From assembly GCA_963817955.1 (NCBI GenBank), contig CAWFQK010000002.1:256001-320000 (forward strand): 64,000 nucleotides of DNA, read 5' to 3'. The translations under genes were made by a program, and so were the position numbers. This DNA is from an uncultured Gemmatimonadaceae bacterium (lineage in GTDB: Bacteria; Gemmatimonadota; Gemmatimonadetes; Gemmatimonadales; Gemmatimonadaceae). Numbering within the stretch: the stretch's first letter is position 1; each line of letters opens with the position of its first letter. Shown here piece by piece: positions 4,538-60,298 of the stretch. The notes under the pieces are model-generated. The model saw only the letters and a program-made list of their open reading frames with translations. It did not search any database and was not told where the DNA came from.

Positions 4538-4718
4538 GACACGGGACACGAGACACGAGACACGAGACACGAGACACGAGAAACTCACAACTCACAACTC
4601 ACAACTGGAAACTCGAACCTCGCCGACCGGCGCTATTTGCCTCCAAGCCAGGGACCCCGGCGCCCGTAACCTGACTGACAACTCACCACTGACCACTGAT
4701 CACCGATCACCGATCACC
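4538..4718. repeat. Composite heptamer tandem-repeat element (GACACGA, ACTCACA, GATCACC units)
   Basis: Direct reading: (gacacga/g)x6, (actcaca)x3, gaaactc-like x2, then accactg/gatcacc units; core nearly identical to 46980-47051. Confidence 0.85.
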
Positions 4719-34431: not shown

Positions 34432-36249
34432 TCAGAATCCGTACGGGCGAATGCTAGTTTTGAGTCTGAGCCGCACGCTTCCGGCTGGCGCATGCGCCCG
34501 CTCAGCGCTGTCGGCGACAGCGGCGAGCCCCGTAGCAACGCTGGCGGACAAGCCGCGCGCGACCGCGTCCTGTGCCTCGCGCTTCGCGTCGTCGTACCGG
34601 CCGAGGGCGATCAAGTCAGCGATCAACCCCGCTTTGGCGACAGGCTGATTCGGATCGCGGCGCAGACTTGCCTCGAACTGTAACAGCGCGAGCGAATCGT
34701 TCCCGTGATCTCGAAATTGATTGGCGAGATCGTTCCGGATCCATTCAGGATTGGGCGATTCATCAATCGCGCGTTGATACGCCTCGATCGCCTCCGGCGT
34801 GCGCCCGATCTGAAACAGCATGAAGCCAACGGCGTGCTGTGCCCGATAGCTCCGCGGAGCATCCTGTGCGGTGCGGAGCCAGAGGATTGCGTTATTCCGC
34901 CAATCAAACTCGCGCCGCACGCTCCGCCACGCCCACAGAACGACAATTACCAGCACCGCCAGCTCAGCATATCGCGGAACGTCATCCCGCGTCTTAGCGA
35001 GCTGCGTCACCGCTGCACCGCCGAGCGCAATCACAGCGATCAAGAATCCGACGCTTGGCAGAAAGAGCGTGCGCTCGGCGAGTACAATACCCGTTGGTAT
35101 GACCACGTTGCTCACGGGCGCGAGTGCAATGGCACACCACAACAAACCGAACGACACCGCGGGGAGCTTACGCCACGACAGCACGATCAGAGCAATAACC
35201 GCGATTACGATTCCTAGACCGACAAGCTCCGTAGACCCAAGGTGCGTTGACTTGACGATTTCGCCCGGCGAATAGTCAGCTTGCAGGTGCACGGGCCATA
35301 CGAACAATCGTAGCCAGCGCGGCACAACTTGCAGCATCGTCAGGGCACGCTCCCGAGCACTGGCACCCACCAGCGCCTCGGCGGTGAAGCTCCCCGCGAT
35401 TCCCTTATGAAGGACGAGCCGCCGAACGACTAGGATCGCCGCGGCCACGACTGCCAAGACCCCGAATCCCGCAAGGGGCGACTTGGAATCGGCGCGAGGC
35501 TGTGCGCGCCGCACGATGAGCAGTTCCGCGATCGCGAGCAGCGCGATTATAACGAAGCCTGTCTCTTTGATCAAACAGGCCGCTGCGTACATGAGCACGA
35601 GCGCGCCCCAGCGCCCCAGCGCCCCCCCCAGCGCCCCAGCGCCCCAGCGCCCCAGCGCCCCAGCGCCCAGCGCCCCAGCGCCCCAGCGCCCCAGCGCCCC
35701 AGCGCCCCAGCGCCCCAGCGCCCCAGCGGAATGTGGGCCGGGGTTGCGAGCTCGCAAGTAGACGAGCACTGAGCCGACCGCAAGAATGGTGACGAGCAAC
35801 TCGCTTTGATTGACTGCGAGTGCAAGCGCCTCCGTGTGGATCGGGGCCGCCGCGAACAGGAGGCCGACCGCCAGTGCCGGTCGCTCGTCCATGAATTGGC
35901 GCACCAGATGGACGACAGCGAAGCTCACCGCGATGTACAGTAGGATGCTGACCAGCCGGAAAACAACCGGCGTTCCTCCACCGAGCCCGTATTCCAACGC
36001 GAAGAGCGTCGTCGAGAAAGGCCGGTAAAGATCGGGAGAGAACGGCGGTGGCCAGTACGGCTTCGTGAAGTACAGCTTCCACATTCCGAGTGCATGCACG
36101 CGGTCATCGCCCACAATGAGTGGCAAGTCGTCGACCGCGTAATCGTTCACCAAGATATTCGCGGACGTGATCAGCGCGACGAGTGCGACGAGCCCGGCGT
36201 CCAGCCATTCCGCGCGTGGCAATCGCGCCTGAGTCCGATGAGAGGTCAT
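34432..36249 (-). CDS. TMTC-like GT-C glycosyltransferase with C-terminal TPR repeats
   Basis: DD motif (YAVDDL), YRP, P.HTEAL, KE, LQADYS, AERTLFLPS; multiple TM helices followed by TPRs. Confidence 0.82.
   Translation of the reverse strand: MTSHRTQARLPRAEWLDAGLVALVALITSANILVNDYAVDDLPLIVGDDRVHALGMWKLYFTKPYWPPPFSPDLYRPFSTTLFALEYGLGGGTPVVFRLVSILLYIAVSFAVVHLVRQFMDERPALAVGLLFAAAPIHTEALALAVNQSELLVTILAVGSVLVYLRARNPGPHSAGALGRWGAGALGRWGAGALGAGALGRWGAGALGGALGRWGALVLMYAAACLIKETGFVIIALLAIAELLIVRRAQPRADSKSPLAGFGVLAVVAAAILVVRRLVLHKGIAGSFTAEALVGASARERALTMLQVVPRWLRLFVWPVHLQADYSPGEIVKSTHLGSTELVGLGIVIAVIALIVLSWRKLPAVSFGLLWCAIALAPVSNVVIPTGIVLAERTLFLPSVGFLIAVIALGGAAVTQLAKTRDDVPRYAELAVLVIVVLWAWRSVRREFDWRNNAILWLRTAQDAPRSYRAQHAVGFMLFQIGRTPEAIEAYQRAIDESPNPEWIRNDLANQFRDHGNDSLALLQFEASLRRDPNQPVAKAGLIADLIALGRYDDAKREAQDAVARGLSASVATGLAAVADSAERAHAPAGSVRLRLKTSIRPYGF
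35605..35727. repeat. Intragenic 8-bp tandem repeat (GCCCCAGC) x15
   Basis: 13 perfect 8-mers plus one 12-mer and one 7-mer = 123 bp. Confidence 0.95.
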
Positions 36250-37313
36250 GAAGTGAATATGATGCGTCGACGCCCCTACGAACATCAACAGCGGCAATTG
36301 GCATCCTCACGCGGCGTCGACCCGGAGCATCCGATACGGTAATTCGCCCCCTGCGTGGGATAGGCACGAGGCGCCATCGCGGCACGCCTGCGCTGAACCT
36401 CTGACAAAGCAGTACTAACGACTGGCCCAAACAACGCGATCTCTCCGCGTTGGGCCGGATATGGGAATAGAAGAGTGCTCAGTCTGAGCTTCGCGGAAGA
36501 GCGAATGGCCCGCTGCCTCATCAGAACATGCGTGCAGGGTCGAGATCGCTATTTCGGAATCGTGAGGTCGAGCCACTTTCCAAACAGCGGGTCCTCGACA
36601 TAGTGCCGGAGATTCGCCCGGTCCCCTTCCCGGCGCGTCAGGCCACGGGCGTCGAGTACAGAGAGCGCCTTCTGCATGGTGGGGACGGGCATCGAGTAGC
36701 GTGCCACGACTTCGCTCGACTTCAAGCCTTGCCCGTGCTCGCGACGAACGGCGAGTAAGGCTCGCTGCTGCGCCGACGAGCGCTCGTTCCAAAGTTGCGT
36801 GTAGAGTGGATCGTTCCGCCGCGCCAGGACTTCGTGCATGCGCCGGACGAGTTCGGGCGTGAGTGATTTCGCGCCGCGTCCCGTCTTCTCGCTCACGGTT
36901 TCCCGACACGCCTCCCAACAGCCGTGAGCCAGGAGTTGCACGTTGTACGGCACGTCCTCCGCTTCGTCGAGGATCGCGGTGATCGCGCCGGCGTCGAGCT
37001 TGATATGACCGCGACTAAATGAGCGCACCAGAAACTCGGCGAAATCCGGGCGCGGAATCGGCCCGATGAATAGGGTTTCGCCAAGCCGATAGAAGGGTTG
37101 CTTCTCCTTCGTGGTCATGTCCGTGAGCAAGCGAGTGGCCGAACCCGCGAAGATGTAACCAATGTGGCGATGCGTTTGCACAGCGGCCCGGAACTCCTGT
37201 TGCGCCGTTTCGCTCGTGCTGACGACGCGCTGGAACTCATCAATGATGAGCGCCACGGGCTTGCCCGTGTGCGCGGCGGCCCGGTCAACGCCCTTGAGCA
37301 CGTCGGTCAGTAA

Positions 37314-38595
37314 GGACCCGTCAAGTAATAAACTTTACACTAGGGCGTGAGGCCGAATCGCGTAGTTCCACTCTCCGTGGAAGGCGTGCGGGAACAGGTT
37401 CACCGTCGCGATCTCCGCGTCCGACACCTTATGCCCCACCGGATACCGATGCCGATCGAGGCGACAGGTCACCGTGAGCCCCTTGGCGGTCGTGGTCTTC
37501 GCAATCAGGCGCACGATGGTTTCGTAGTCCCGCAACGGCTCGCCGCGCCAGTTCGAGCTGATGAACGAGAACAAGCGATGCTCCACCTTGTTCCATTTGC
37601 TCGTGCCAGGTGGGAAATGGCACACCCGGAGCGTGAGGCCCGTCTCATCGGCCAACGCTTGCAGTTGCAGTTTCCATTGCCGCAGCCGGTAGCCGTTGCT
37701 GCCGCCCGCATCCGCCGTGATCAGCAGACTGCGCGCGGCGGGATAGAGGCGGCGGCCTTCCGCACGCCACCACCCGCGAACCGACGCCACCGCAAACGCG
37801 CCGGTGTCGTGGTCGGTCCCAACGTTCACGAATCCCCGGTTGCGGGCAAGGTCGTAGATGCCGTACGGGAAGGCGCGCGGCACCTCGGGGCTGGGAAAAT
37901 CATGCACGGCCACCCGCTCCGGGGTCTTCCCTTTCCGCCACTGCTGGCCCGCGTTCTGGTAGTTGCCGAGCAGTTCCTTCTTCTTGGTATCGACGGAAAT
38001 GACCGGTCGCTTCGCCCGCAGCGCGCAGCGCACGGCATCGTTGATGAACGCGAATTGCGCGTTGCGGTCGGGATGATCGGCCCCTTCCTCCGTCTTTCGA
38101 TTGGCTTGCAGACTGTAGTCCATGCTCCGCAACACCTGCGCAACCGTCTCATGACTGATCGGGTGCCCCTCCGCGGTCAATTCCGCCGCGAGCACGCGCG
38201 TGCTCTTGATGGTCCACCGCAGGGGGGATTCCGGATCGCCGCGCGTCAGCGGGTCCACCAGCGCCTCCAGTCGATCCGGCAGCTCCGGATCGTCTAGCTC
38301 GAGCATCGGGCGCCCGCCGCCCGCGCGGCGCACGCGCCCGGCCGGGAGGGGAGCCTCGTCCAGTTCGTGCAAGCCCTTCGTGATCGTGACGCGCGATAAC
38401 CCACAGGCGCGACTCACCGCGGAGATACCGCCCCGACCGAGGCGCCGCGCTTCGCTCGCGGCAAACAACCGCCGCGCCCGCTCATCCAAATGCGGCCACA
38501 ACTGGTTCACCCGCTGCTGCAATGCGCGCACGTCGGCCATGCGCACAAGATATCACTGTGCTCATTCCATGTAAATGTTATTGTCTGACGCCTCC
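37314..38595 (-). mobile_element. ISAzo13-family insertion sequence (1282 bp)
   Basis: Imperfect 26-bp terminal IRs (GGACCCGTCAAGTAATAAACTTTACA vs GGAGGCGTCAGACAATAACATTTACA, 19/26); TAA direct repeats at 37311-37313 and 38596-38598. Confidence 0.93.
37335..38546 (-). CDS. ISAzo13-family DDE transposase
   Basis: TRGDPESPLRWT, YSLQANRKT, HPDRNAQF, ISVDTKKKE, ADAGGSNGYR, PPGTSKWNKVEHRLFS. Confidence 0.96.
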   Translation of the reverse strand: MRMADVRALQQRVNQLWPHLDERARRLFAASEARRLGRGGISAVSRACGLSRVTITKGLHELDEAPLPAGRVRRAGGGRPMLELDDPELPDRLEALVDPLTRGDPESPLRWTIKSTRVLAAELTAEGHPISHETVAQVLRSMDYSLQANRKTEEGADHPDRNAQFAFINDAVRCALRAKRPVISVDTKKKELLGNYQNAGQQWRKGKTPERVAVHDFPSPEVPRAFPYGIYDLARNRGFVNVGTDHDTGAFAVASVRGWWRAEGRRLYPAARSLLITADAGGSNGYRLRQWKLQLQALADETGLTLRVCHFPPGTSKWNKVEHRLFSFISSNWRGEPLRDYETIVRLIAKTTTAKGLTVTCRLDRHRYPVGHKVSDAEIATVNLFPHAFHGEWNYAIRPHALV

Positions 38596-39193
38596 TAACG
38601 GAATGCCTCCGCTCCGCCCCGCCTTGCCGGTGAGCCGCACGGCGATCGAGCCATCGCTCTCTGCGCGCACCTCGGGGCGTACGCTCGCGAAGAAGGTGAG
38701 TGCGGCCTGCCTGGTCTTCTCGAATGTCGTGGCCACCCGCTTTGCCGTATCCGTGAGGATGCGCTCGGCAAGGTGCTCGATCGTCGGGAACGCTTCGGCG
38801 TCATACCGCAGCACGATCGCGCCCTTTCCGGCACGCTCTTCGGCTGATGCGAGGAGACTCGACTTCCCGAGCCGGCGACGCCCAATCACCCACAACACGG
38901 AGCCATTGCGAATGGCCGCGAGCACCGTTCGCAGCTCATCGGTGCGATCCACCAACTCATCTGCACCAAGTTCGCGTCCGAACTCAAACGGGTTCTTCAT
39001 AACATGGCGGCCAAAGTGGCAGTGAATACTGGACTATGCCAAAAGGAATAATGCCGAACGGTGTAATTCTACATGTCCCTGTGGCGGCGGCAAGCCCTTC
39101 AGCGAGATCCGGGTAGCGCGGCGGGGGGAAGAAGCCCACATCGTCGTGTCGCGCCGCGATTACCACGATGAACTCTTTCAGAAGCAGGACTCG

Positions 39194-40732: not shown

Positions 40733-41338
40733 TCACGCTGCCGCTTTCCAGACCATCCGCCCCATGCACACCTCGACGGCCGCGCGCGGTTCGCCAGCCA
40801 CGGCATGCGTGTCCAGATCCACCCATCGGACAAACCGGTCGCCGTCGTCCGGACAGAGCTGCCGTATGTTCCGATGAATGCCATGCTCGGCGAGGCGGCC
40901 GGACTCGTCGATGCTCGCTTCGATGGTCCGGCACTCGAAGCAGGGCTTCTCCTCTGCCGTGACGGTCGTGCCCTCCACGTGCACGACGATGCCCGTGTGG
41001 AGATAGCGGCGCCGCAACCTGGACCACTGGAGAAAGACGTCGCCGCGAATCGGCATGCCCACCCGTCCGATCCCGCGCTCGCTGGCAAAGCGCCACAGGT
41101 CGTCGCCGTCGGCGGTCGCGGGGAGCGGCCAGGCCGACCAGCCCGTCAGGTGATCGAAGTGCGACCAGTAGCCCACATGGTACACGAACGCCGCATGCCA
41201 CGGCGCGTCGATCGGTGCATGCACCTCGTGGAGCATGTACTCGATCAACTGTCCTCGGCCCGTCGGCCGCTCTTCATGGACGCCAATGAAGCCGTTGGCG
41301 CATGCCACGAACGCATCAGGAGACAGTGGACGAATCAT
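40733..41338 (-). CDS. CHAP-domain-like protein lacking the catalytic Cys
   Basis: A..FIGVHE....RG, PWHAAFV (usually PWCAAFV), P.RGDVF, HTGIV, RTIEAS (usually TIEGN). Confidence 0.72.
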   Translation of the reverse strand: MIRPLSPDAFVACANGFIGVHEERPTGRGQLIEYMLHEVHAPIDAPWHAAFVYHVGYWSHFDHLTGWSAWPLPATADGDDLWRFASERGIGRVGMPIRGDVFLQWSRLRRRYLHTGIVVHVEGTTVTAEEKPCFECRTIEASIDESGRLAEHGIHRNIRQLCPDDGDRFVRWVDLDTHAVAGEPRAAVEVCMGRMVWKAAA

Positions 41339-41388: not shown

Positions 41389-42261
41389 CTACTGCACGTC
41401 GAGCCGGTTCCCATGAATGCAGGCGGTTTCCCCCGCGTGTAACGCGCGTCCCGCTCCGTAGCTCGCCGACTCACTCTCGATGATCGCACTGCCCTGGTGC
41501 ACCTCGATCACCGTCGCCTCCCGCCCACCGCGGATGGTGTACCGTCCTGGCAACAGATCGACATGCACGCGGGTCGTGGAGATCCCAAAGAGCGAGTGGC
41601 GCGCCCCGTTCACGGCAATCTCGATGTCGCCCTGCAGGAACCCGGCGCGCGTGAACGCCGCACCCCGCGCGATGGGGGCATAGATGAATGTGCTTCCCGG
41701 CATGAGCATGAGATTCGAGCTGTCCGGAAGGATCAGACGCTGCGCGGCGCCACCGGCGGGAACACACCACTCCGTGGTGCCCCACCGTTGCCGCTCGCAC
41801 GACGTCTGCGGCAGTGGCCGCGACGCGATCGCCCGCGCCAGGGCATAGCTCCCACTGCCCACGCCGCCGACACGCAGCACGAGCGCCGCGAGGCCAACCG
41901 TCTGCGGTAGGTACCGCCAATACCGCAGCCGGTCCCACGCGCTGTGGTCGCCCAACAGTCGATGCGAGAACACGTCGGTACGCGCCAGCCCCGCCGCTTC
42001 AGTGATCTGGTCCCAGCCCGCCTGTGCCGCCGCACGTTGGCGTGCCGATTCGTCGAGCGGCACGGTGCTCTTGATGAACGTGATGGTCTCTATCCATTCG
42101 CCGACCCGCGCGTCGAAGACCGCTTCACGTTGCATTCTGGCCTCTACGCCATGTGCCGCTTCCGCGTCAAGCATGCCCCGCGCGTATTCCATCGCCAGGA
42201 TGTCGTCGTGAGTCACGACGCCTTCGCCATCAGTGTGGATGATATCCATACGATTATGCAT
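41389..42261 (-). CDS. FecR-like anti-sigma factor
   Basis: N-terminal EYARGMLD..A..VE anti-sigma helix, one hydrophobic segment, ILPDSSNLMLMPGSTFIY..FLQGD..TVIEVHQGS FecR-like strands; 8-nt overlap with the sigma gene. Confidence 0.7.
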   Translation of the reverse strand: MHNRMDIIHTDGEGVVTHDDILAMEYARGMLDAEAAHGVEARMQREAVFDARVGEWIETITFIKSTVPLDESARQRAAAQAGWDQITEAAGLARTDVFSHRLLGDHSAWDRLRYWRYLPQTVGLAALVLRVGGVGSGSYALARAIASRPLPQTSCERQRWGTTEWCVPAGGAAQRLILPDSSNLMLMPGSTFIYAPIARGAAFTRAGFLQGDIEIAVNGARHSLFGISTTRVHVDLLPGRYTIRGGREATVIEVHQGSAIIESESASYGAGRALHAGETACIHGNRLDVQ

Positions 42262-42967
42262 GATCGCTCCTCCGCATGCTCGTCGTCCGCGGCGCGCCCG
42301 CCGAGATGAGCGATTGCTGACCCAGGGGCAAGCGGCCCGCCTGGTATTCGTTTCGGACGGCCAGAAGCTCGGCGCGCAGCTCGCACACGATGTGCGTCAC
42401 CCGGCCCGGCGTGATGCCGAGAGCGGCGGCGGCGTCCCGATGTGGCATCTCGCGATGAAAGACCAACTCATAGACTCTGCGTTGCTGCTTGGTCAGGTTC
42501 CCGACGCCTGCCTGGATGGCCGTCCAATACTCGGCGTCCACCAACGCGGCATCTGGCCCATCGACCAGGACCGCATCGGGGTATGTCGTCAGGCTCACGG
42601 TGCGCCATCCACCCTGCCGTGCGTTGTCCCGACGTGCATCCTTCAGCTGGTTGCCGGTCGCCTGTTTGACGTAGGAGAAGAACTCTGCCTTGTGCTCGAA
42701 GCACGCGCCCTCGTCGCACCTCTTCAGGACCTTCAGAATGACCTTCACGGCGATATCCCACGCCTCGTCTTCCAGGGCGCCTGCCTTGCGGGCCGTGCGA
42801 AACGCCGCGTCGTACGCCTCTTTGAGGCGAGCGTCGAACAGTGGATCCAGCTTTGCGGTCGATGGTACCGGCAGGAGCGGTGGCTCCTCGACGTTGACAT
42901 CGTGCATACAGTACTCGTCCGGGTGGACCGGTGGACGGTAGAGAGGCAAGGTCGGGGTCGGCGGCAT
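42254..42967 (-). CDS. ECF-type sigma-70 factor (start 42967 or 42907)
   Basis: Region 2 DEAWDIAVKVILKV..YVKQATGNQLKDARR; region 4 LTKQQRRVYELVFHREMPHRDAAAALGITPGRV. Confidence 0.85.
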   Translation of the reverse strand: MPPTPTLPLYRPPVHPDEYCMHDVNVEEPPLLPVPSTAKLDPLFDARLKEAYDAAFRTARKAGALEDEAWDIAVKVILKVLKRCDEGACFEHKAEFFSYVKQATGNQLKDARRDNARQGGWRTVSLTTYPDAVLVDGPDAALVDAEYWTAIQAGVGNLTKQQRRVYELVFHREMPHRDAAAALGITPGRVTHIVCELRAELLAVRNEYQAGRLPLGQQSLISAGAPRTTSMRRSDHA

Positions 42968-43100
42968 CGCGTCTGATGTGCCTCTCTACTTGTACTAACG
43001 CCGAAATCGGCAAAACATGTCGGTTTTGGTCAATCGGTCATATTGGCCCTTGCGCCGACCCCCCATTTTCGGAACTAATATATAGAGGCATGTTCATCAC

Positions 43101-43922
43101 AGAACGCTCAGGCGCCGCGATGGAGTCGATCGCGCCGAGATCGAATGCGTGCCTGTCGAGATGGGATCGATCGTTGTCTAGCTCGAATGCACGCTTGTGT
43201 AGCTGGAATCGATCATCGTTCAGACCGAATGGACGCGTGTCCAGGTGGGATCGATCGGTGTTGAGATCGAATGCAATCCTGCCCCGAGGGAATTGATCGC
43301 GGTCGAGACCGAATTCCCGCGACTTTACCTGGAATACATTCCTGCTCATAGGGAATCCCTCGCTGTCTCACTCCAACTCACGCCTGCGCAGGTGGAACTC
43401 CCGCCCGTCACGATCGAACGAGCGCCGATCGAGGAGTGACTCCGGCGCATCCAGCTCGCACCAACGACGGATCAGGGCGGAGGCATTCCGGTTCCGATCG
43501 AACACACCGGTGTCGACCGATAATGCCGCCCGCGCCAGTGACAATGCCCCTCGCGCTCCATGGAACCTCTGCTCGCCAAGGCGCCTCTGATGCGCGTACA
43601 CACACATCTCGCGCGCGTCCACCCGCAATCTCCGCTCGGTTCGCTGGAATGATCTGACGTCGACGTGGAATGGTGTCCCGGTCAGGTCGGATTCCTTCCT
43701 GTCGAGAGCGAATCCACGCGCATCCAGGTGTGATTGGTCTGTGGTGAGACGGAACGGCGCCGGCGCAAACACGAACCCGTCGCGTGCAAGAACGAATCGG
43801 TCGCGTGCAAGCATGAACCGCTCGCGACCGACAGCGGACTCACGGCCGTGCAGGATGGAGTAGCGGGCATCCCGCGAGGAGTAGTCCCGGTCAACAGCAA
43901 ACCCTCGCTCATCACCATCGGA
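43101..43922. repeat. Degenerate 21-bp periodic array (~39-40 units, unbroken register)
   Basis: G[AG]A at 29 of 39 positions spaced exactly 21 bp (43122, 43143 ... 43920); approximate consensus GTCNAGNTSGAAY-N8. Confidence 0.85.
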
Positions 43923-44138
43923 GCCTCGGCCCTCGAAGCCTCTCCCGCTCGATCCACGCGGGACTCGTCCGCGCCGACATGGAACAGATCCCTGTCGACA
44001 GGTAATCGATTGTTCTGTAGGACCCAGTCGCGCGGACGCACGAGGGATGGCTGGCGCGGCACGTAGACACGACCAATGCACGCGGCACGTCGCGCTGTCC
44101 CTCGGCGACTCCGACAGGTCTGAAGGCAGCTCCCGCTC

Positions 44139-44270
44139 TTCCGACGACCATTCCGTCATTCCCGACTGCGCTTCCGTCGGTTCCGACGACCATTCCGTCA
44201 TTCCCGACTGCGCTTCCGTCGGTTCCGACGACCATTCCGTCATTCCCGCCGCGCTTCCGTCACTTCCGAC
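44139..44270. repeat. 42-bp (2x21) tandem repeat, ~3 copies
   Basis: TTCCGACGACCATTCCGTCATTCCCGACTGCGCTTCCGTCGG at 44139 and 44181, with a variant copy at 44223. Confidence 0.92.
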
Positions 44271-44379
44271 GGCGATCGCGACACATCTCACGTCTGTTGC
44301 TCTCTCTTCACGCCGGCGCGTCGGGCGCCCGCCGGCGTGCAGTTTTCTTTTGGCGCCCCCATGGCCACTTGGAGGCCAT

Positions 44380-45153
44380 ATGAAATACAGTGAAGGCAGT
44401 ACCCTGGAGACGCTCCGCCGCAGCGACGCATTCATCGCGGCGAATCCCGGCCCGTTCGCCACACTGAGCGGCTCGACGACGCTACGAGAGTTCAGCGACA
44501 CGATCGCGCAACTCACGGCCCACGCGGCGACGCAGGAGGATGGCAGCCGCGCGAGTCGGGGCGAGACGACGCGCCAGCAGGCGCTCCGGGTCGCGCTCCG
44601 CAAGCATCACATGCAGGGCATCGCGGCAGTCGCGAAGATCCGGCTCAAGGCAGTCCCGGACTTCAGCTCGCTGACGATGCCGCGGGCCAATGTCTCGACG
44701 GAGCGGTTGCTCGCTGCGGCGGCGGCCATGGCCGAGGCGTCGCGGCGGCACGAGGCCGTGCTGATCGACGGCGGGCTGTCGACCAATTTCATTGCACGTC
44801 TCGAGGCAGCGGCGGAGACGATGAAGGAATCGCTCGATGGTCGAGCGACATTCGGCGTCCGTCGACGGGGCGCCACGGCAGGACTGTCGATCGAGGAGCA
44901 GCGCGGACGCAACATGATCAAGCTGCTCGATTCGGAACTCCTGCCGCTCATCGGCGCCGACCAGGCCTTGCTCGCCGCCTGGCAGACCGCCAAGCGCATT
45001 CCGCGCAAACCGGGCGTCAAGATCGGGTCTACGACTGCGGCGACGACGCCGCCAGTCACCACCCAACCGGTCACCACATCACCCGTCACCACGCCACCCG
45101 TCACCACGCCACCGGTGACTCCTCCGCCGGCCAGTGAGGTGTCGGCCGCGTAG
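44380..45153 (+). CDS. Uncharacterised alpha-helical protein with C-terminal (PVTT[PQS])n tail
   Basis: RBS GGAGG then ATG 44380; 257 aa, Ala/Leu/Arg-rich amphipathic helices, no signal peptide; five 5-aa repeats near the C-terminus. Confidence 0.8.
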   Translation: MKYSEGSTLETLRRSDAFIAANPGPFATLSGSTTLREFSDTIAQLTAHAATQEDGSRASRGETTRQQALRVALRKHHMQGIAAVAKIRLKAVPDFSSLTMPRANVSTERLLAAAAAMAEASRRHEAVLIDGGLSTNFIARLEAAAETMKESLDGRATFGVRRRGATAGLSIEEQRGRNMIKLLDSELLPLIGADQALLAAWQTAKRIPRKPGVKIGSTTAATTPPVTTQPVTTSPVTTPPVTTPPVTPPPASEVSAA

Positions 45154-45269: not shown

Positions 45270-45560
45270 ATGTTCACCCAGTTCTCCCCTCCCCTGGTCA
45301 CTACCACTGTTGGTCTCGCCGCCGTCGCCACCGCGGCCTTTCGCTTTGGCGTCCACCACGAACGCGGCAACAGTATCAGCCGCCGCGTCAGCCTCGAGCT
45401 CAATCGCTTCCGCGATGAACTGACCAATGGCCTGGCCGCCGTCGAACGCCGCATGCGCAGGTTCGACGACGTCATTGCCTTCGTCTACGACCACAACCGC
45501 CGCCTCGCGCTCCTCGAGCATGGCGTGCGGGTGCATGGCACCCAGGTCGCCGCCACATGA
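45270..45560 (+). CDS. Small protein, one hydrophobic segment plus coiled coil (holin-associated-like)
   Basis: Hydrophobic N-terminus, then heptad region ending HNRRLALLE; ATGA overlap with next gene. Confidence 0.6.
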   Translation: MFTQFSPPLVTTTVGLAAVATAAFRFGVHHERGNSISRRVSLELNRFRDELTNGLAAVERRMRRFDDVIAFVYDHNRRLALLEHGVRVHGTQVAAT

Positions 45561-45856
45561 GCCCGCGCATGACGTTCTCCATTCGACACGGCGTTGCCCT
45601 TGCCCTCAGCTTCGTCCGCGAGCACACGGCCGAGAGCTGCACGCGGCTCTGCGCCATTCTGTGCTGCCTCACCGGCTGCGGGGCCGCGGTCGCGACGCTC
45701 TGGTTCGCCTTCATCAACCCCAGCGCGGCGGCCACGGTCGCCGCGCTGGTGGGAGTGACCTCGGCGCTCATTGCTGCCGGGTGTGTCGCCCTTCTCACCC
45801 GTACCAGAAACCCTGACTGCGCCCTCACCCCTGCTGGCGCCGGAGGTGTGGCATGA
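45557..45856 (+). CDS. Putative holin (2 TM, 99 aa)
   Basis: ESCTRL followed by two TM helices; immediately upstream of and coupled to the CHAP hydrolase. Confidence 0.55.
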   Translation: MSPRMTFSIRHGVALALSFVREHTAESCTRLCAILCCLTGCGAAVATLWFAFINPSAAATVAALVGVTSALIAAGCVALLTRTRNPDCALTPAGAGGVA

Positions 45857-46374
45857 TGCCCGAGAGTCTATATAAGGAAGTGAGCGACGGCGTCCGCCGC
45901 GCCCTGGACTTCGCCCTCACCAACGTGGGGGTGTGCGAAGAGCCCCCTGGCTCGAACCGCGGGCCCGAAATTGACGCCTGGGCCCGCGAGTTCGGCTCTC
46001 CACCAGGGTCCTTCTGGTGTGCACTCGCCGTAGCCAAGGCCCGCAAGATGGGGAATCTTTGGATTCCGCAGGGTAGCGCCGGCTCGTGCGACGAATGGAT
46101 ATACCAGGGGCGTCATGCTGGCGTCATGTCGAACCTGCCACAGCCCGGCGCGGCCGTCGTCTACACGAACAACAAGCGCCTCACCCAAGGCCGCTACGCC
46201 GGCCAGCTCGACGCGGTCCACATTGGGCTCGTCCTCCGCCTCACCCCCAAGCTCCTGTCCATCGAGGGCAACACCACACTCGGCAAGTATGATCGCGAGG
46301 GCTACGTGCAGACGCTCAAGGAGGTAGACCCCACCCGGGTGCTCGGCTTCATCCTGCCGGAGAAACCAGCATGA
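45853..46374 (+). CDS. CHAP-domain peptidoglycan hydrolase (putative endolysin)
   Basis: VGVCEEPPGSNRGPEID, FWCALAV (Cys), PQPGAAVVY, HIGLV (His), SIEGNT; no signal peptide. Confidence 0.88.
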   Translation: MMPESLYKEVSDGVRRALDFALTNVGVCEEPPGSNRGPEIDAWAREFGSPPGSFWCALAVAKARKMGNLWIPQGSAGSCDEWIYQGRHAGVMSNLPQPGAAVVYTNNKRLTQGRYAGQLDAVHIGLVLRLTPKLLSIEGNTTLGKYDREGYVQTLKEVDPTRVLGFILPEKPA

Positions 46375-46973
46375 AGCCAACACTTCTCATCATGACAACG
46401 ACCAACCGCCGGTGGCTCCCCGCCACCGGCGGTGTGGTCCTGGTGCTCGTCGCACTCGCATCGTGGATGCATCGAGCCAACCGCTCGTCGCTGGACGCCA
46501 CGCTTGCAGCACATGAAGAGCGCGCTCGGAACGCCGCGGCGGCAATCCGCGACGCGAAGTCCGCCGCGGAATCGGCAGGCAAGCAGGAGTCGGCCTACGT
46601 GCAGACCGTATCAATAGAACGGGCCCACGCCGGCGCAGTGCGCGTCCGCGCGGACTCGGTGTTCGCTGTCGCGCAAGTGCTGGATACGGCGTTCCGTGAG
46701 GCCTACGTGCTGCGTGACAGCGAAGCCATTGCGTTGCGCGTCCTCGCGGCGGCGCAGGACAGCGCACTGACGTGGGCCGACACGCGTGCAGTCTCGCTCT
46801 CGACGGCGCTCGACATCAGCGAAGTGCGGGCGGCGGACGCCGAGTCGCTGTTAGTGGTGGTCCAACGCAACGCCAGCGAGCAGTGCCGCATCGTGCGAGT
46901 GGTTCCGTGTCCGTCACGACGGGTGATCGCGGTATTGAGTGGGGCAGCGGTGTGGTTGGCGTTGAAGCGGTGA
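46371..46973 (+). CDS. Spanin-like membrane-anchored coiled-coil protein
   Basis: N-terminal TM, long Ala-rich helical region, C-terminal CRIVRVVPCPSRR plus hydrophobic tail; ATGA overlap with the endolysin. Confidence 0.5.
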   Translation: MKPTLLIMTTTNRRWLPATGGVVLVLVALASWMHRANRSSLDATLAAHEERARNAAAAIRDAKSAAESAGKQESAYVQTVSIERAHAGAVRVRADSVFAVAQVLDTAFREAYVLRDSEAIALRVLAAAQDSALTWADTRAVSLSTALDISEVRAADAESLLVVVQRNASEQCRIVRVVPCPSRRVIAVLSGAAVWLALKR

Positions 46974-46979
46974 TAACAG

Positions 46980-47051
46980 GACACGGGACACGGGACACGA
47001 GAAACTCACAACGCACAACTCACAACTGGAAACTCGAAACTCGCCGACCGG
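46980..47051. repeat. Second copy of the composite heptamer element
   Basis: GACACGG-GACACGG-GACACGA-GAAACTCACAACGCACAACTCACAACTGGAAACTCGAAACTCGCCGACCGG, near-identical to the core at ~4573-4630. Confidence 0.85.
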
Positions 47052-47091
47052 TGGGCCGCCCGTTACCGAGCAACAAGCGACCCTCCTCATA

Positions 47092-50551: not shown

Positions 50552-51256
50552 GTGAGCGTCTGCCGGCCGGGTGCGCGACGCTGAACCGCTCCCGGCCGGC
50601 GCTTCCTCAGTGCCGGCACGGACGATCGGCCTGCTGTCGCCAAGACTGGTCGCGGTAAAGTCGCGGAGGTCCGTCAACATCTGGTTCACGCGGCGGCCGG
50701 AGTTCACTACTCCGGTGACGAGCACGAGTTGGTTCTCGCTGAGCCCCCCGGTCTCCAGCAGGAACTGCCCCGACGTGATGACCGCACTCAGCGTCGATCG
50801 CAGATCATGACCGAGCATCGTGAGCAAATGCTGCCTGGTCTGATCGATATCGTGTGTGTAGCGCGAGAACGACTCGACGATCGCTTGATCGATGGCTTCG
50901 TTGAACCGGATCATCTCGTCGAATTCTGCTTCCCCGACAGTCCGCCACTGCCTGGCCCATAGTCGCATCACGCTCGTACGCAGGGCCAGAAACTCGGACA
51001 CCGTTTGCCTGACGGAAGAGCTGCCTTCTTGCCTGACGGAAGAGCTGCCTTCGGTCCGCAGCGATACATGATCCGATGCTGCCCCTGCCTGCGGCCTCTC
51101 CAGGTCGCCCGCGATGCCTTCGAGGGTCGCCTTTGCGTGATCGCGGGGCGCCGAAACATCCGGCAATTCCCCCGCTGGAAGCCCGCGGGCGAGCGTTTCC
51201 CACTCGGCAGCGATCTCTTCGATGTGTTCGCGGATGAAGTGCGAGAGCCTGGGCAT
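50543..51256 (-). pseudogene. RsbRD-N plus HisKA sensor kinase fragment lacking the ATPase domain
   Basis: RLSHFIREHIEEIAAEWE, SEFLALRTSV, RFNEAIDQAI.ES, LGHDLRSTL; ends before N/G boxes; internal 24-bp duplication at 51005-51052. Confidence 0.7.
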
Positions 51257-59542: not shown

Positions 59543-59564
59543 TGCTACGGGACACGGGATGCCT

Positions 59565-60239
59565 GTCATCCTGAGCGGGGCGAAGGATCTCGGTGAACGG
59601 CGCAACAGCTCTTGAACGCAGAGGGCGCAGAGAACTGCAAAAGAGAACTGCAAAAGAGAACTGCAAAAGAGACGCTAGAGGCGATTCGCCACGCGGATGA
59701 TCCCATCTTTCAACTGCGCAACCTGGAAGTTGATCAACAGGCCAACCTGCCGATTGCTCAGTTTGAGTTGGGACAGCAGTTGGGCTTTGTGGACCGGCAG
59801 AATCTTCGCGGCCGCCTTGACCTCGACAATGACACATTCCTCGACCAGCAGATCTATCCGATAGGCCAGGTCGAGCTCGACACCCTCGTACACGAGGGGC
59901 ATCGGAACCTCGCTGCGCACGCTCAGCCCGCGTTTCCGCAGCTCGTGCGCGAGGCAGACGTGGTACGCGCGCTCCAGCAATCCAGGACCCAATGCGGAAT
60001 GAACCTTGATTGCCGAGTCCACAATCATTCCGCTCACCTCGTTGATGATCACGACATAGGCGATACCATCCGAGCGTCACGTGGGCGTCATCCAAGGCTT
60101 CCAGGCGAGACGATACTTCATGGTCCTCTGCGTTTCTCTTTGCAGTCTCTTTGCAGTTCTCTTTTGCAGTTCTCTGCGTCCTCTGCGTTCAAAAGCTGTT
60201 GCGCCGTTCACAGAGATCCTTCGCTCCGCTCAGGATGAC
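59565..60239. repeat. ~110-bp inverted repeats flanking the GxxExxY gene
   Basis: 59565-~59674 GTCATCCTGAGCGGGGCGAAGGATCTCGGTGAACGGCGCAACAGC..(AGAACTGCAAAAG)n versus its near reverse complement at ~60129-60239. Confidence 0.9.
59675..60052 (-). CDS. GxxExxY protein (PD-(D/E)XK-like)
   Basis: VHSALGPGLLERAY, YRIDLLVE..VIVEVKA, AQLLS.LK, GLLINF. Confidence 0.93.
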   Translation of the reverse strand: MIINEVSGMIVDSAIKVHSALGPGLLERAYHVCLAHELRKRGLSVRSEVPMPLVYEGVELDLAYRIDLLVEECVIVEVKAAAKILPVHKAQLLSQLKLSNRQVGLLINFQVAQLKDGIIRVANRL

Positions 60240-60298
60240 GGGCGCTTCGCTCAGAATGTCCCGTGTCCCGTGTCCCGTGTCCCGCCTCCCCCAATACC

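Follow-up and report, generated by a model that had tools for sequence, protein, structure and literature searches.

We describe a periodic region of about 1.2 kb, between two divergent operons in the genome of an uncultured Gemmatimonadaceae bacterium, in which a non-coding unit of 21 bp is repeated head to tail. The stretch of DNA analyzed, called the window below, comprises 64,000 nt with a GC content of 65% (assembly GCA_963817955.1, contig CAWFQK010000002.1, positions 256,001-320,000, forward strand). The periodic region is a real feature, and arrays of the same period occupy the same position beside five homologues, in related genomes, of the protein encoded to its right from position 44380 (the 44380 protein). 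This association persists across deep divergence of the partner gene, and in the relatives the arrays lie upstream of a conserved box in a fixed orientation. Most probably it is a conserved regulatory track that does not code for protein, and not a gene that has broken down. That it is a phased array, on which a DNA-binding protein docks cooperatively and each unit spans two helical turns, is a reading to which we would give about even chances.

A 21-bp period between two divergent operons

The trinucleotide G[AG]A recurs at 29 of 39 sites set 21 bp apart from 43122 to 43920, where 1.1 would be expected from its background frequency of 0.028; in the remaining 20 registers the top count is 9 and all others are 3 or less. 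An earlier note on this DNA had reported this recurrence, free of register slip, and it was reproduced here. The autocorrelation and Fourier analyses that the note had proposed were run, and both detect the period. Base identity at lag 21 is 0.45 over 43101-44270, compared with 0.24-0.26 at lags 7 and 14, and the mean at lag 21 in 600-nt windows over the whole 64 kb is 0.30 (standard deviation, sd, 0.03). The mean plus 3 sd is exceeded solely by 600-nt windows starting at 43001-43901, which makes this the sole period-21 region in the window, and the Fourier power has a peak at 21.0 plus harmonics. The note had extended the period over the whole 1.2 kb; it holds for 43095-43934 and 44118-44270 and is only weak over 43935-44117 (lag-21 identity 0.34), and we therefore describe two arrays rather than one continuous array. 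The near-perfect 42-bp triplication that the note had placed at 44139-44270 is recovered by Tandem Repeats Finder (44139-44271, period 42, 3.2 copies, 95% matches). The features on which the argument turns are the following.

43095-43934, minus strand (probable polarity, see below): main array, 40 head-to-tail 21-bp units with zero register slip
43935-44117, no strand assigned: degenerate zone between the arrays, with weak periodicity
44118-44270, plus strand: proximal array of about 7 units, with a 42-bp unit present 3.2 times at 95% identity; adjoins the leader of the 44380 gene
42958-43014, minus strand: promoter-like box; its homologues separate array from gene in 5/5 relatives
44380-45153, plus strand: gene for a basic, all-helical protein (isoelectric point, pI, 10.3) whose Pro/Thr tail is disordered; its family is found with the arrays throughout
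43371-44243, minus strand: spurious open reading frame (ORF) P0001, 291 aa, read through the arrays by gene callers and ending at the TGA at 43368-43370

On the minus strand the consensus of the main array is GACGGGCGTGGATTCGATCTG, and the T of its TTC is present in 38/40 units. A higher-order repeat of 42 bp is clearest at 43138-43275. No inverted repeats were found within the unit and no signal is present at lags 10-11 within the window arrays, so that each unit is best described as a single asymmetric site. The units are contiguous, without spacers, which sets the arrays apart from clustered regularly interspaced short palindromic repeats (CRISPR), where identical repeats alternate with unique spacers.

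The two arrays appear to point in opposite directions. The motif ATTC occurs in the main array 13 times on the minus strand versus 4 times on the plus strand, while TTCC occurs across 43935-44290 13 times on the plus strand versus once on the minus strand. The ATTC bias, taken with where the box lies, would give the main array minus-strand polarity. The earlier note placed the region upstream of the 44380 gene; the main array appears instead to face the sigma factor operon on the left. Regularity is graded along the main array: units two apart have an average identity of 0.55 close to the box, against 0.40 mid-array, and in the window, as in the relatives, the units closest to the putative promoters are the most regular.

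Comparison with a close strain shows how the copy number changes. Its ORF across the region, P0016, is identical to the window ORF at 336 of 341 aligned residues, and the alignment contains two gaps of exactly 14 aa and 7 aa, equivalent to one missing 42-bp unit and one extra 21-bp unit. A gap of 7 aa also separates P0001 from P0002, a related ORF considered below. Because copy number changes by whole units, phase is kept.

Arrays of the same period beside homologous genes

We aligned 11 homologues of the 44380 protein, and a profile scan of genome contigs gave four loci (L001-L004), all in metagenome-assembled genomes of Gemmatimonadaceae and encoding proteins with 29-33% identity to the window protein. 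One locus, L003, holds two tandem copies of array and gene, so that the four loci contain five homologues. An array of period 21/22 and 0.5-0.6 kb lies directly upstream in 5/5 cases. In 400-nt windows across the relatives' 56.6 kb, lag-21 identity of at least 0.40 is confined to the approximately 2.4 kb upstream of the matched homologue and is reached nowhere else; since L003 contains two copies, all flagged stretches are about 1 kb or less from a homologue start. The earlier note had held that its reading would fail if homologues of the downstream gene showed no enrichment for periodic flanks, and this enrichment is what we observe.

An iterated position matrix called 100 units in the relatives' arrays, and 70 of their 95 spacings are exactly 21 bp. 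Spacings that are not a multiple of three number 21/95, with at least one in every array and 11/19 in the second array of L003 (L003b). The units have in common a core of 12 nt, G[GA]CGA[AC][CG]GNNGC, usually followed by TTCC, and the other 9 nt vary between sub-arrays. In all cases the units lie on the gene strand. Similarity between the arrays is seen only when both have the same orientation (scores of 1.5-4.9, falling to 0.9-2.3 when one is reversed), except for the pair L002p/L001d, which scores slightly higher reversed. The array-adjacent proteins of the relatives share 69-80% identity with one another and 30-33% with the window protein. In this Gemmatimonadaceae gene family, array, box or leader, and gene follow one another as a conserved module.

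The unit itself is less easily followed into the window. When the consensus of the window's minus strand is set against that of the relatives' plus strand, 10 of 21 positions are common (ACG..CG.GG.TTC), along with an A/T patch at position 13. This agreement is suggestive, and nothing more, of a shared ancestry of the units.

A promoter-like box between array and gene

Between array and gene, 5/5 homologues share a box and leader of about 190 nt with a mean identity of 82%. The box starts with ACTTTTG-N8-GGNGTT-N7-AGTAGAGGGGCACGTC, includes a TAGTAGAG part, and is followed by the leader; the arrays end about 30-120 bp before it. A profile of the box has one significant match in the 64 kb of the window (nhmmer E=0.0023), at 43014-42958 on the minus strand, that is, to the left of the main array. 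The match carries an exact AGTAGAGRGGCACRTC at 42975-42990 on the minus strand and runs past the sigma gene's ATG at 42967. The core of the box, GGCACRTMGAC, has a single exact match in the window, at 44058-44068 on the plus strand within the degenerate zone; this is a weak lead, with 12 matches at one mismatch or less in the window versus 9.9 expected.

The box is a putative promoter. Consensus sigma-70 promoters were looked for and none was found. The sigma-54 consensus has GG-N10-GC spacing and is of the type TGGCAC-N5-TTGC. Compared with it by eye, the box has an invariant GGCAC and no TTGC, with a GC at the required distance in 2/6 boxes (window and L004) and one base off in 4. By analogy with iteron operators we also considered an inverted copy of the unit core inside the box and rejected it: a score of at least 9 bits was reached in 1/5 boxes, and matrix matches occur about twice per kb anywhere in these GC-rich genomes.

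The box and leader lie at 9800-9985 in L001, 4470-4655 in L002, 8160-8345 and 9800-9985 in L003, and 9255-9440 in L004. Their 82% identity is higher than the 69-80% of the adjacent proteins. Three hairpins are predicted in the relatives' leader, the last of which would sequester the GGAGGGGG ribosome-binding site; compensatory change was seen in 3/45 of the pairs among five sequences, and the box and leader have no match in Rfam.

The partner protein and the neighbouring genes

The 44380 protein belongs to a family of constant, strongly basic character, the pI being 10.1-10.5 in 11/12 aligned sequences. Such a pI is compatible with nucleic-acid binding and says nothing further. An AlphaFold model (mean predicted local distance difference test, pLDDT, 79.6) shows long hairpins of helices, among them 33-88 and 137-191, and a Pro/Thr tail that is disordered. 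Foldseek comparison of this model with PDB and BFVD gave no match at E<=0.001, a sequence profile search of PDB with the family gave nothing below E=0.1, and Pfam, NCBIfam and PHROGs contain no match to it. A tblastn search of plasmids (72,556) and phages with the family gave no match either. The Atlas neighbours of the protein are exclusively clusters of hypothetical proteins from Gemmatimonadota and Myxococcota. Its constant pairing with the arrays and its pI of about 10 make the 44380 product a candidate array binder. P0006, the close strain's homologue, is recorded from residue 100 only, and the array-derived ORF P0016 extends 5'-ward over the gene start; the shortening looks like an annotation artefact of the arrays.

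Genes diverge to either side of the arrays in the window, and the features nearest to them are these.

42254-42967, minus strand: extracytoplasmic function (ECF)-type sigma-70 family gene, the first gene past the box; Sigma70_r4_2 and r4 below the Pfam cut-off
41389-42261, minus strand: FecR-like anti-sigma factor gene (PF04773 at 23.9 bits against a cut-off of 24; NF052375 weak)
44316-44352, plus strand: GC-rich hairpin and T-run (TTTTCTTTT), 28 bp before the 44380 start codon

The sigma gene scores 41.7 bits with TIGR02937, whose cut-off is 42.9. The anti-sigma gene is followed on the minus-strand side by a weakly CHAP-like gene (40733-41338), below curated cut-offs. The hairpin at 44316-44352 looks like a terminator or attenuator in the 44380 leader, and it may instead mark the end of plus-strand transcription across the arrays. 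On the right-hand side, the 44380 gene is followed on the plus strand by four small genes (45270-46973), whose products are, in order, 96 aa, 99 aa (hydrophobic), 173 aa (weakly CHAP-like) and 200 aa long, the last with a hydrophobic segment at its N terminus. Their order recalls a holin-endolysin-spanin cassette, with matches below curated cut-offs.

The neighbours of the module differ between loci. An ECF-like sigma factor gene adjoins it in the window and in L002, and these two sigma factors are unrelated. No response regulator was found beside the modules, and a histidine kinase was found beside L001 only.

Alternative readings of the arrays

The earlier note had offered three options for this region: a phased binding array, a repetitive non-coding RNA and a decayed heptad-repeat gene. 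The arrays upstream of 5/5 homologues favor the binding array, and the other two found no support. The case for a gene starts from the minus strand, on which the units read D-x-R-x-F-x-L and one stop occurs in about 400 codons, against 4-11 stops in the other five frames. The note's stop counts are right, with four in the plus-strand frame that repeats Asn or Asp and one, the TGA at 43368-43370, in the minus-strand frame. A real or recently decayed heptad-repeat gene, possibly reading through this TGA, would also fit the strongest signal in the unit, a T as second base in both the F and the L/V codons (the third base of L/V is free, 0.03 bits), and gene callers predict the ORF in two strains. 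However, when columns were shuffled among the 40 units, the mean number of stops was 3.3 versus the one seen (P(<=1)=0.09). The open frame is therefore in large part explained by unit composition. The GC content at third codon positions (GC3) of the ORF is 0.68, about 1.8 sd below the 0.775 (sd 0.054) of 38 other ORFs, and an A is conserved at the third position of an otherwise variable codon in 20/40 units. Among 1.84 billion representatives, P0001 has four matches: the window's own copy, P0002, and two long low-complexity proteins that were left unused. P0002 is a 141-aa piece with 55% identity to P0001, in which, by eye, 4/9 of the register-5 Phe residues have changed to Cys or Ser. It probably forms a second module in the same genome together with P0005, an 88%-identical copy of the 44380 protein; if the two do belong to one module, divergence of the array has far outrun that of the gene, and the ORF has not been kept. 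In the relatives every frame has a stop in 4/5 arrays, the single open frame (L004) lies on the strand opposite the TTCC motif, and the 21/95 spacings that are not a multiple of three break the frame. P0001 has no Pfam or NCBIfam family and a low Atlas recognition value (887, best score 0.76). The stop statistics, the loss of the frame in P0002 and the relatives, the frame-breaking spacings and the family searches led us to reject a heptad-repeat gene, and we regard even a recently decayed one as highly improbable. FxLD-like strings in the minus frame resemble a motif of lanthipeptide leaders; with no NCBIfam match, this candidate was likewise dropped.

A repetitive RNA, either a long leader or a stand-alone transcript whose GGAAU/GGGAU motifs on the window's plus strand titrate an RNA-binding protein in the manner of CsrB/RsmZ, would explain why a GGA-containing motif recurs on that strand every 21 or 42 nt. 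Its transcript could end at the hairpin and T-run at 44316-44352, and a box-like TATAGAGGCATG is visible, by eye only, at 43082-43093 on the plus strand. Nevertheless, neither strand folds better than dinucleotide-shuffled controls in the arrays of the window or of L004 (z of +0.89, -0.23, -0.33 and +0.26), and Rfam has no match at E<=1 in 43000-44400 and none at E<=0.1 in the relatives' arrays; a structured RNA was rejected on these grounds. In the relatives, moreover, the GGAA strand is opposite the gene and the box is downstream of the array, so that the array lies outside the gene's mRNA if the box is the promoter. We consider the RNA reading quite improbable, and an unstructured, separately transcribed array RNA may exist. 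The main rival of the docking array, which we hold to be unlikely, is a minisatellite with little or no sequence-specific function, born by slippage and copied along with the gene and its upstream DNA, which would at most tune expression through copy number as a contingency locus. Close strains do differ by whole units, and the higher-order repeats (42, 64 and 127 bp) are of the kind that satellite dynamics typically produce. The proximal triplication, its copies 95% identical, is young, and the middle of the main array is strongly degenerate. The likely paralogous array in the same genome is also just 55% identical, measured in the ORF frame, versus 88% for the paralogous gene. What a minisatellite explains poorly is that arrays of the same period stand in the same position beside proteins diverged to 30% identity, that different genomes have retained the 12-nt core as the other positions of the unit drifted, and that unit length is 21 in 70/95 of the relatives' spacings and in 40/40 window units, since neutral decay would erase such regularity.

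Several observations weigh against the phased docking array as well. Between 43000 and 44300 the relatives' matrix gives 3 matches of at least 8 bits on the plus strand and none on the minus strand, and the orientation-specific similarity of the window unit is at noise level for most of the relatives' arrays; because the fit is this poor, it is mainly the box that speaks for homology of the units and for the polarity of the main array. The box profile itself has no match at E<=10 in 43935-44379, upstream of the 44380 gene. In the middle of the main array, units match the consensus at 7-13 of 21 positions, which fits weak constraint. No DNA-binding domain was detected in the 44380 family by Pfam, NCBIfam, PHROGs, PDB sequence or fold search, and no array-binding protein was identified. 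Finally, arrays of 24-40 sites far exceed known activator or iteron arrays.

Proposed docking sites and known systems

The arrangement is probably that of two back-to-back arrays of 21-bp units, each most regular beside its putative promoter and decaying inward. The leftward module would run on the minus strand from the main array through the box to the ECF sigma and anti-sigma operon, and the rightward module on the plus strand from the short, young array at 44118-44270 through the hairpin/T-run leader to the 44380 gene. In a docking track, each unit would provide one asymmetric site, and as 21 bp is two helical turns, all sites would share one helical face, along which a DNA-binding protein would load cooperatively and set the activity of the adjacent promoter. 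Copy number shifts by whole units with phase retained. The data establish the arrays themselves, their period, their conserved position and their non-coding nature; protein binding, the regulatory effect and the polarity of the main array are what we infer here.

A more specific version, which we hold to be unlikely as it stands, names the binder. The arrays would load the basic long-helix protein encoded beside them, head to tail over 0.5-0.85 kb, with one subunit or dimer per two turns, and the resulting nucleoprotein filament would autoregulate its own promoter and also, here, that of the ECF sigma operon. Unit and protein would codiverge, so that window-type units pair with proteins of the window type and GGCGAACG-type units with those of L001-L004. 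Such a system would be an undescribed, iteron-like but non-replicative one of Gemmatimonadota and possibly Myxococcota.

It is instructive to compare the arrays with systems in which short phased or tandem sites control a promoter. The closest documented geometry is found in Bordetella, where six BvgA dimers bound 22 bp apart, a spacing termed 'two helical turns', activate Pptx; there, BvgA~P sites at ptx and fha lie on one helix face upstream of the core promoter, are individually weak and are bound cooperatively, and deletions of whole 22-bp units kept the phasing (PMC7250471). The arrays described here likewise place sites phased by about 21-22 bp on one face upstream of a promoter, provided that the box is one. 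In contrast, there are 3-6 BvgA sites, each an inverted heptad dyad, and they abut the -35 element, whereas our arrays hold 19-40 asymmetric direct repeats.

Iterons of plasmids such as R6K, pPS10 and RK2 are direct repeats of about 20-22 bp beside a gene whose promoter follows the repeats and whose product binds them; there are about 3-7 of them, at a replication origin, bound by winged-helix Rep proteins. The arrays here are likewise direct repeats, phased at about two helical turns beside a partner gene, but at least 2-3 modules occur per genome, they are chromosomal, and the all-helical partner has no Rep match in Pfam, NCBIfam or PDB and no plasmid homologue. In partition centromeres (parC/ParR and the heptads of the omega protein), tandem short repeats lie upstream of the binder's operon and their cooperative coating also represses its promoter. 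Here, no gene for a ParA/ParM-type motor or a ribbon-helix-helix protein was detected beside the arrays, and the module is present in several copies per chromosome. Contingency repeats, for example the 7-bp repeat of the Haemophilus hmw promoter, have units of 1-7 bp in nearly perfect copies. The copy number of our arrays also varies between strains upstream of a gene, but the units are 21 bp long, diverged, and kept across deep protein divergence.

By these comparisons the arrays would fit the known class of helically phased tandem binding-site arrays, in a variant that is several times longer, chromosomal and multi-copy. Full-text searches of the literature gave no description of such arrays.

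Other repeats and insertions in the window

The window contains several further repeats. A tandem heptanucleotide composite (GACACGA/GGACACG, then AACTCAC, then GGAAACTCGAA.CTCGCCGACCGG) occurs in near-identical form at 4538-4625 and 46979-47052, each time directly after a stop codon, and its first heptamer is found inverted at a third locus, 60257-60284. It looks like a dispersed element akin to repetitive extragenic palindromic (REP) or short tandemly repeated repetitive (STRR) sequences. A minus-strand ORF at 59675-60052 is flanked by inverted arrays of a 13-bp unit, AGAGAACTGCAAA, at 59629-59672 and 60134-60175; outside these arrays (59560-60240) are inverted repeats of the type tcatcctgagcgg...gaaggatctc, and the whole of 59560-60240 looks like an inserted cassette.

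An 8-bp unit, GCGCCCCA, is repeated 16 times at 35603-35728 within a minus-strand ORF (34432-36297, TPR / PMT_2-like), where it is in frame only as a repeat of 24 bp (8 aa). Two fragments of a STAND/AAA ATPase, at 36549-37301 and 38578-39000, flank an ISAZ013-type DDE transposase gene (37335-38546, E=8e-136), which suggests that an ISAZ013-type insertion split the ATPase gene. An exact direct repeat of 24 bp is present twice at 51005-51052, about 170 bp upstream of the start of a P-type ATPase gene at 51222.

Implications

Gene callers turn these arrays into 'hypothetical proteins' such as P0001, P0002 and P0016, and recognizing them as arrays would improve annotation. If they are docking tracks, they would constitute a new and easily recognized class of cis-regulatory element in a poorly studied phylum and, with tens of sites, a natural extreme of cooperative binding in helical phase. 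They would also provide a testable function for an uncharacterized protein family that has neither a Pfam entry nor a structural relative.

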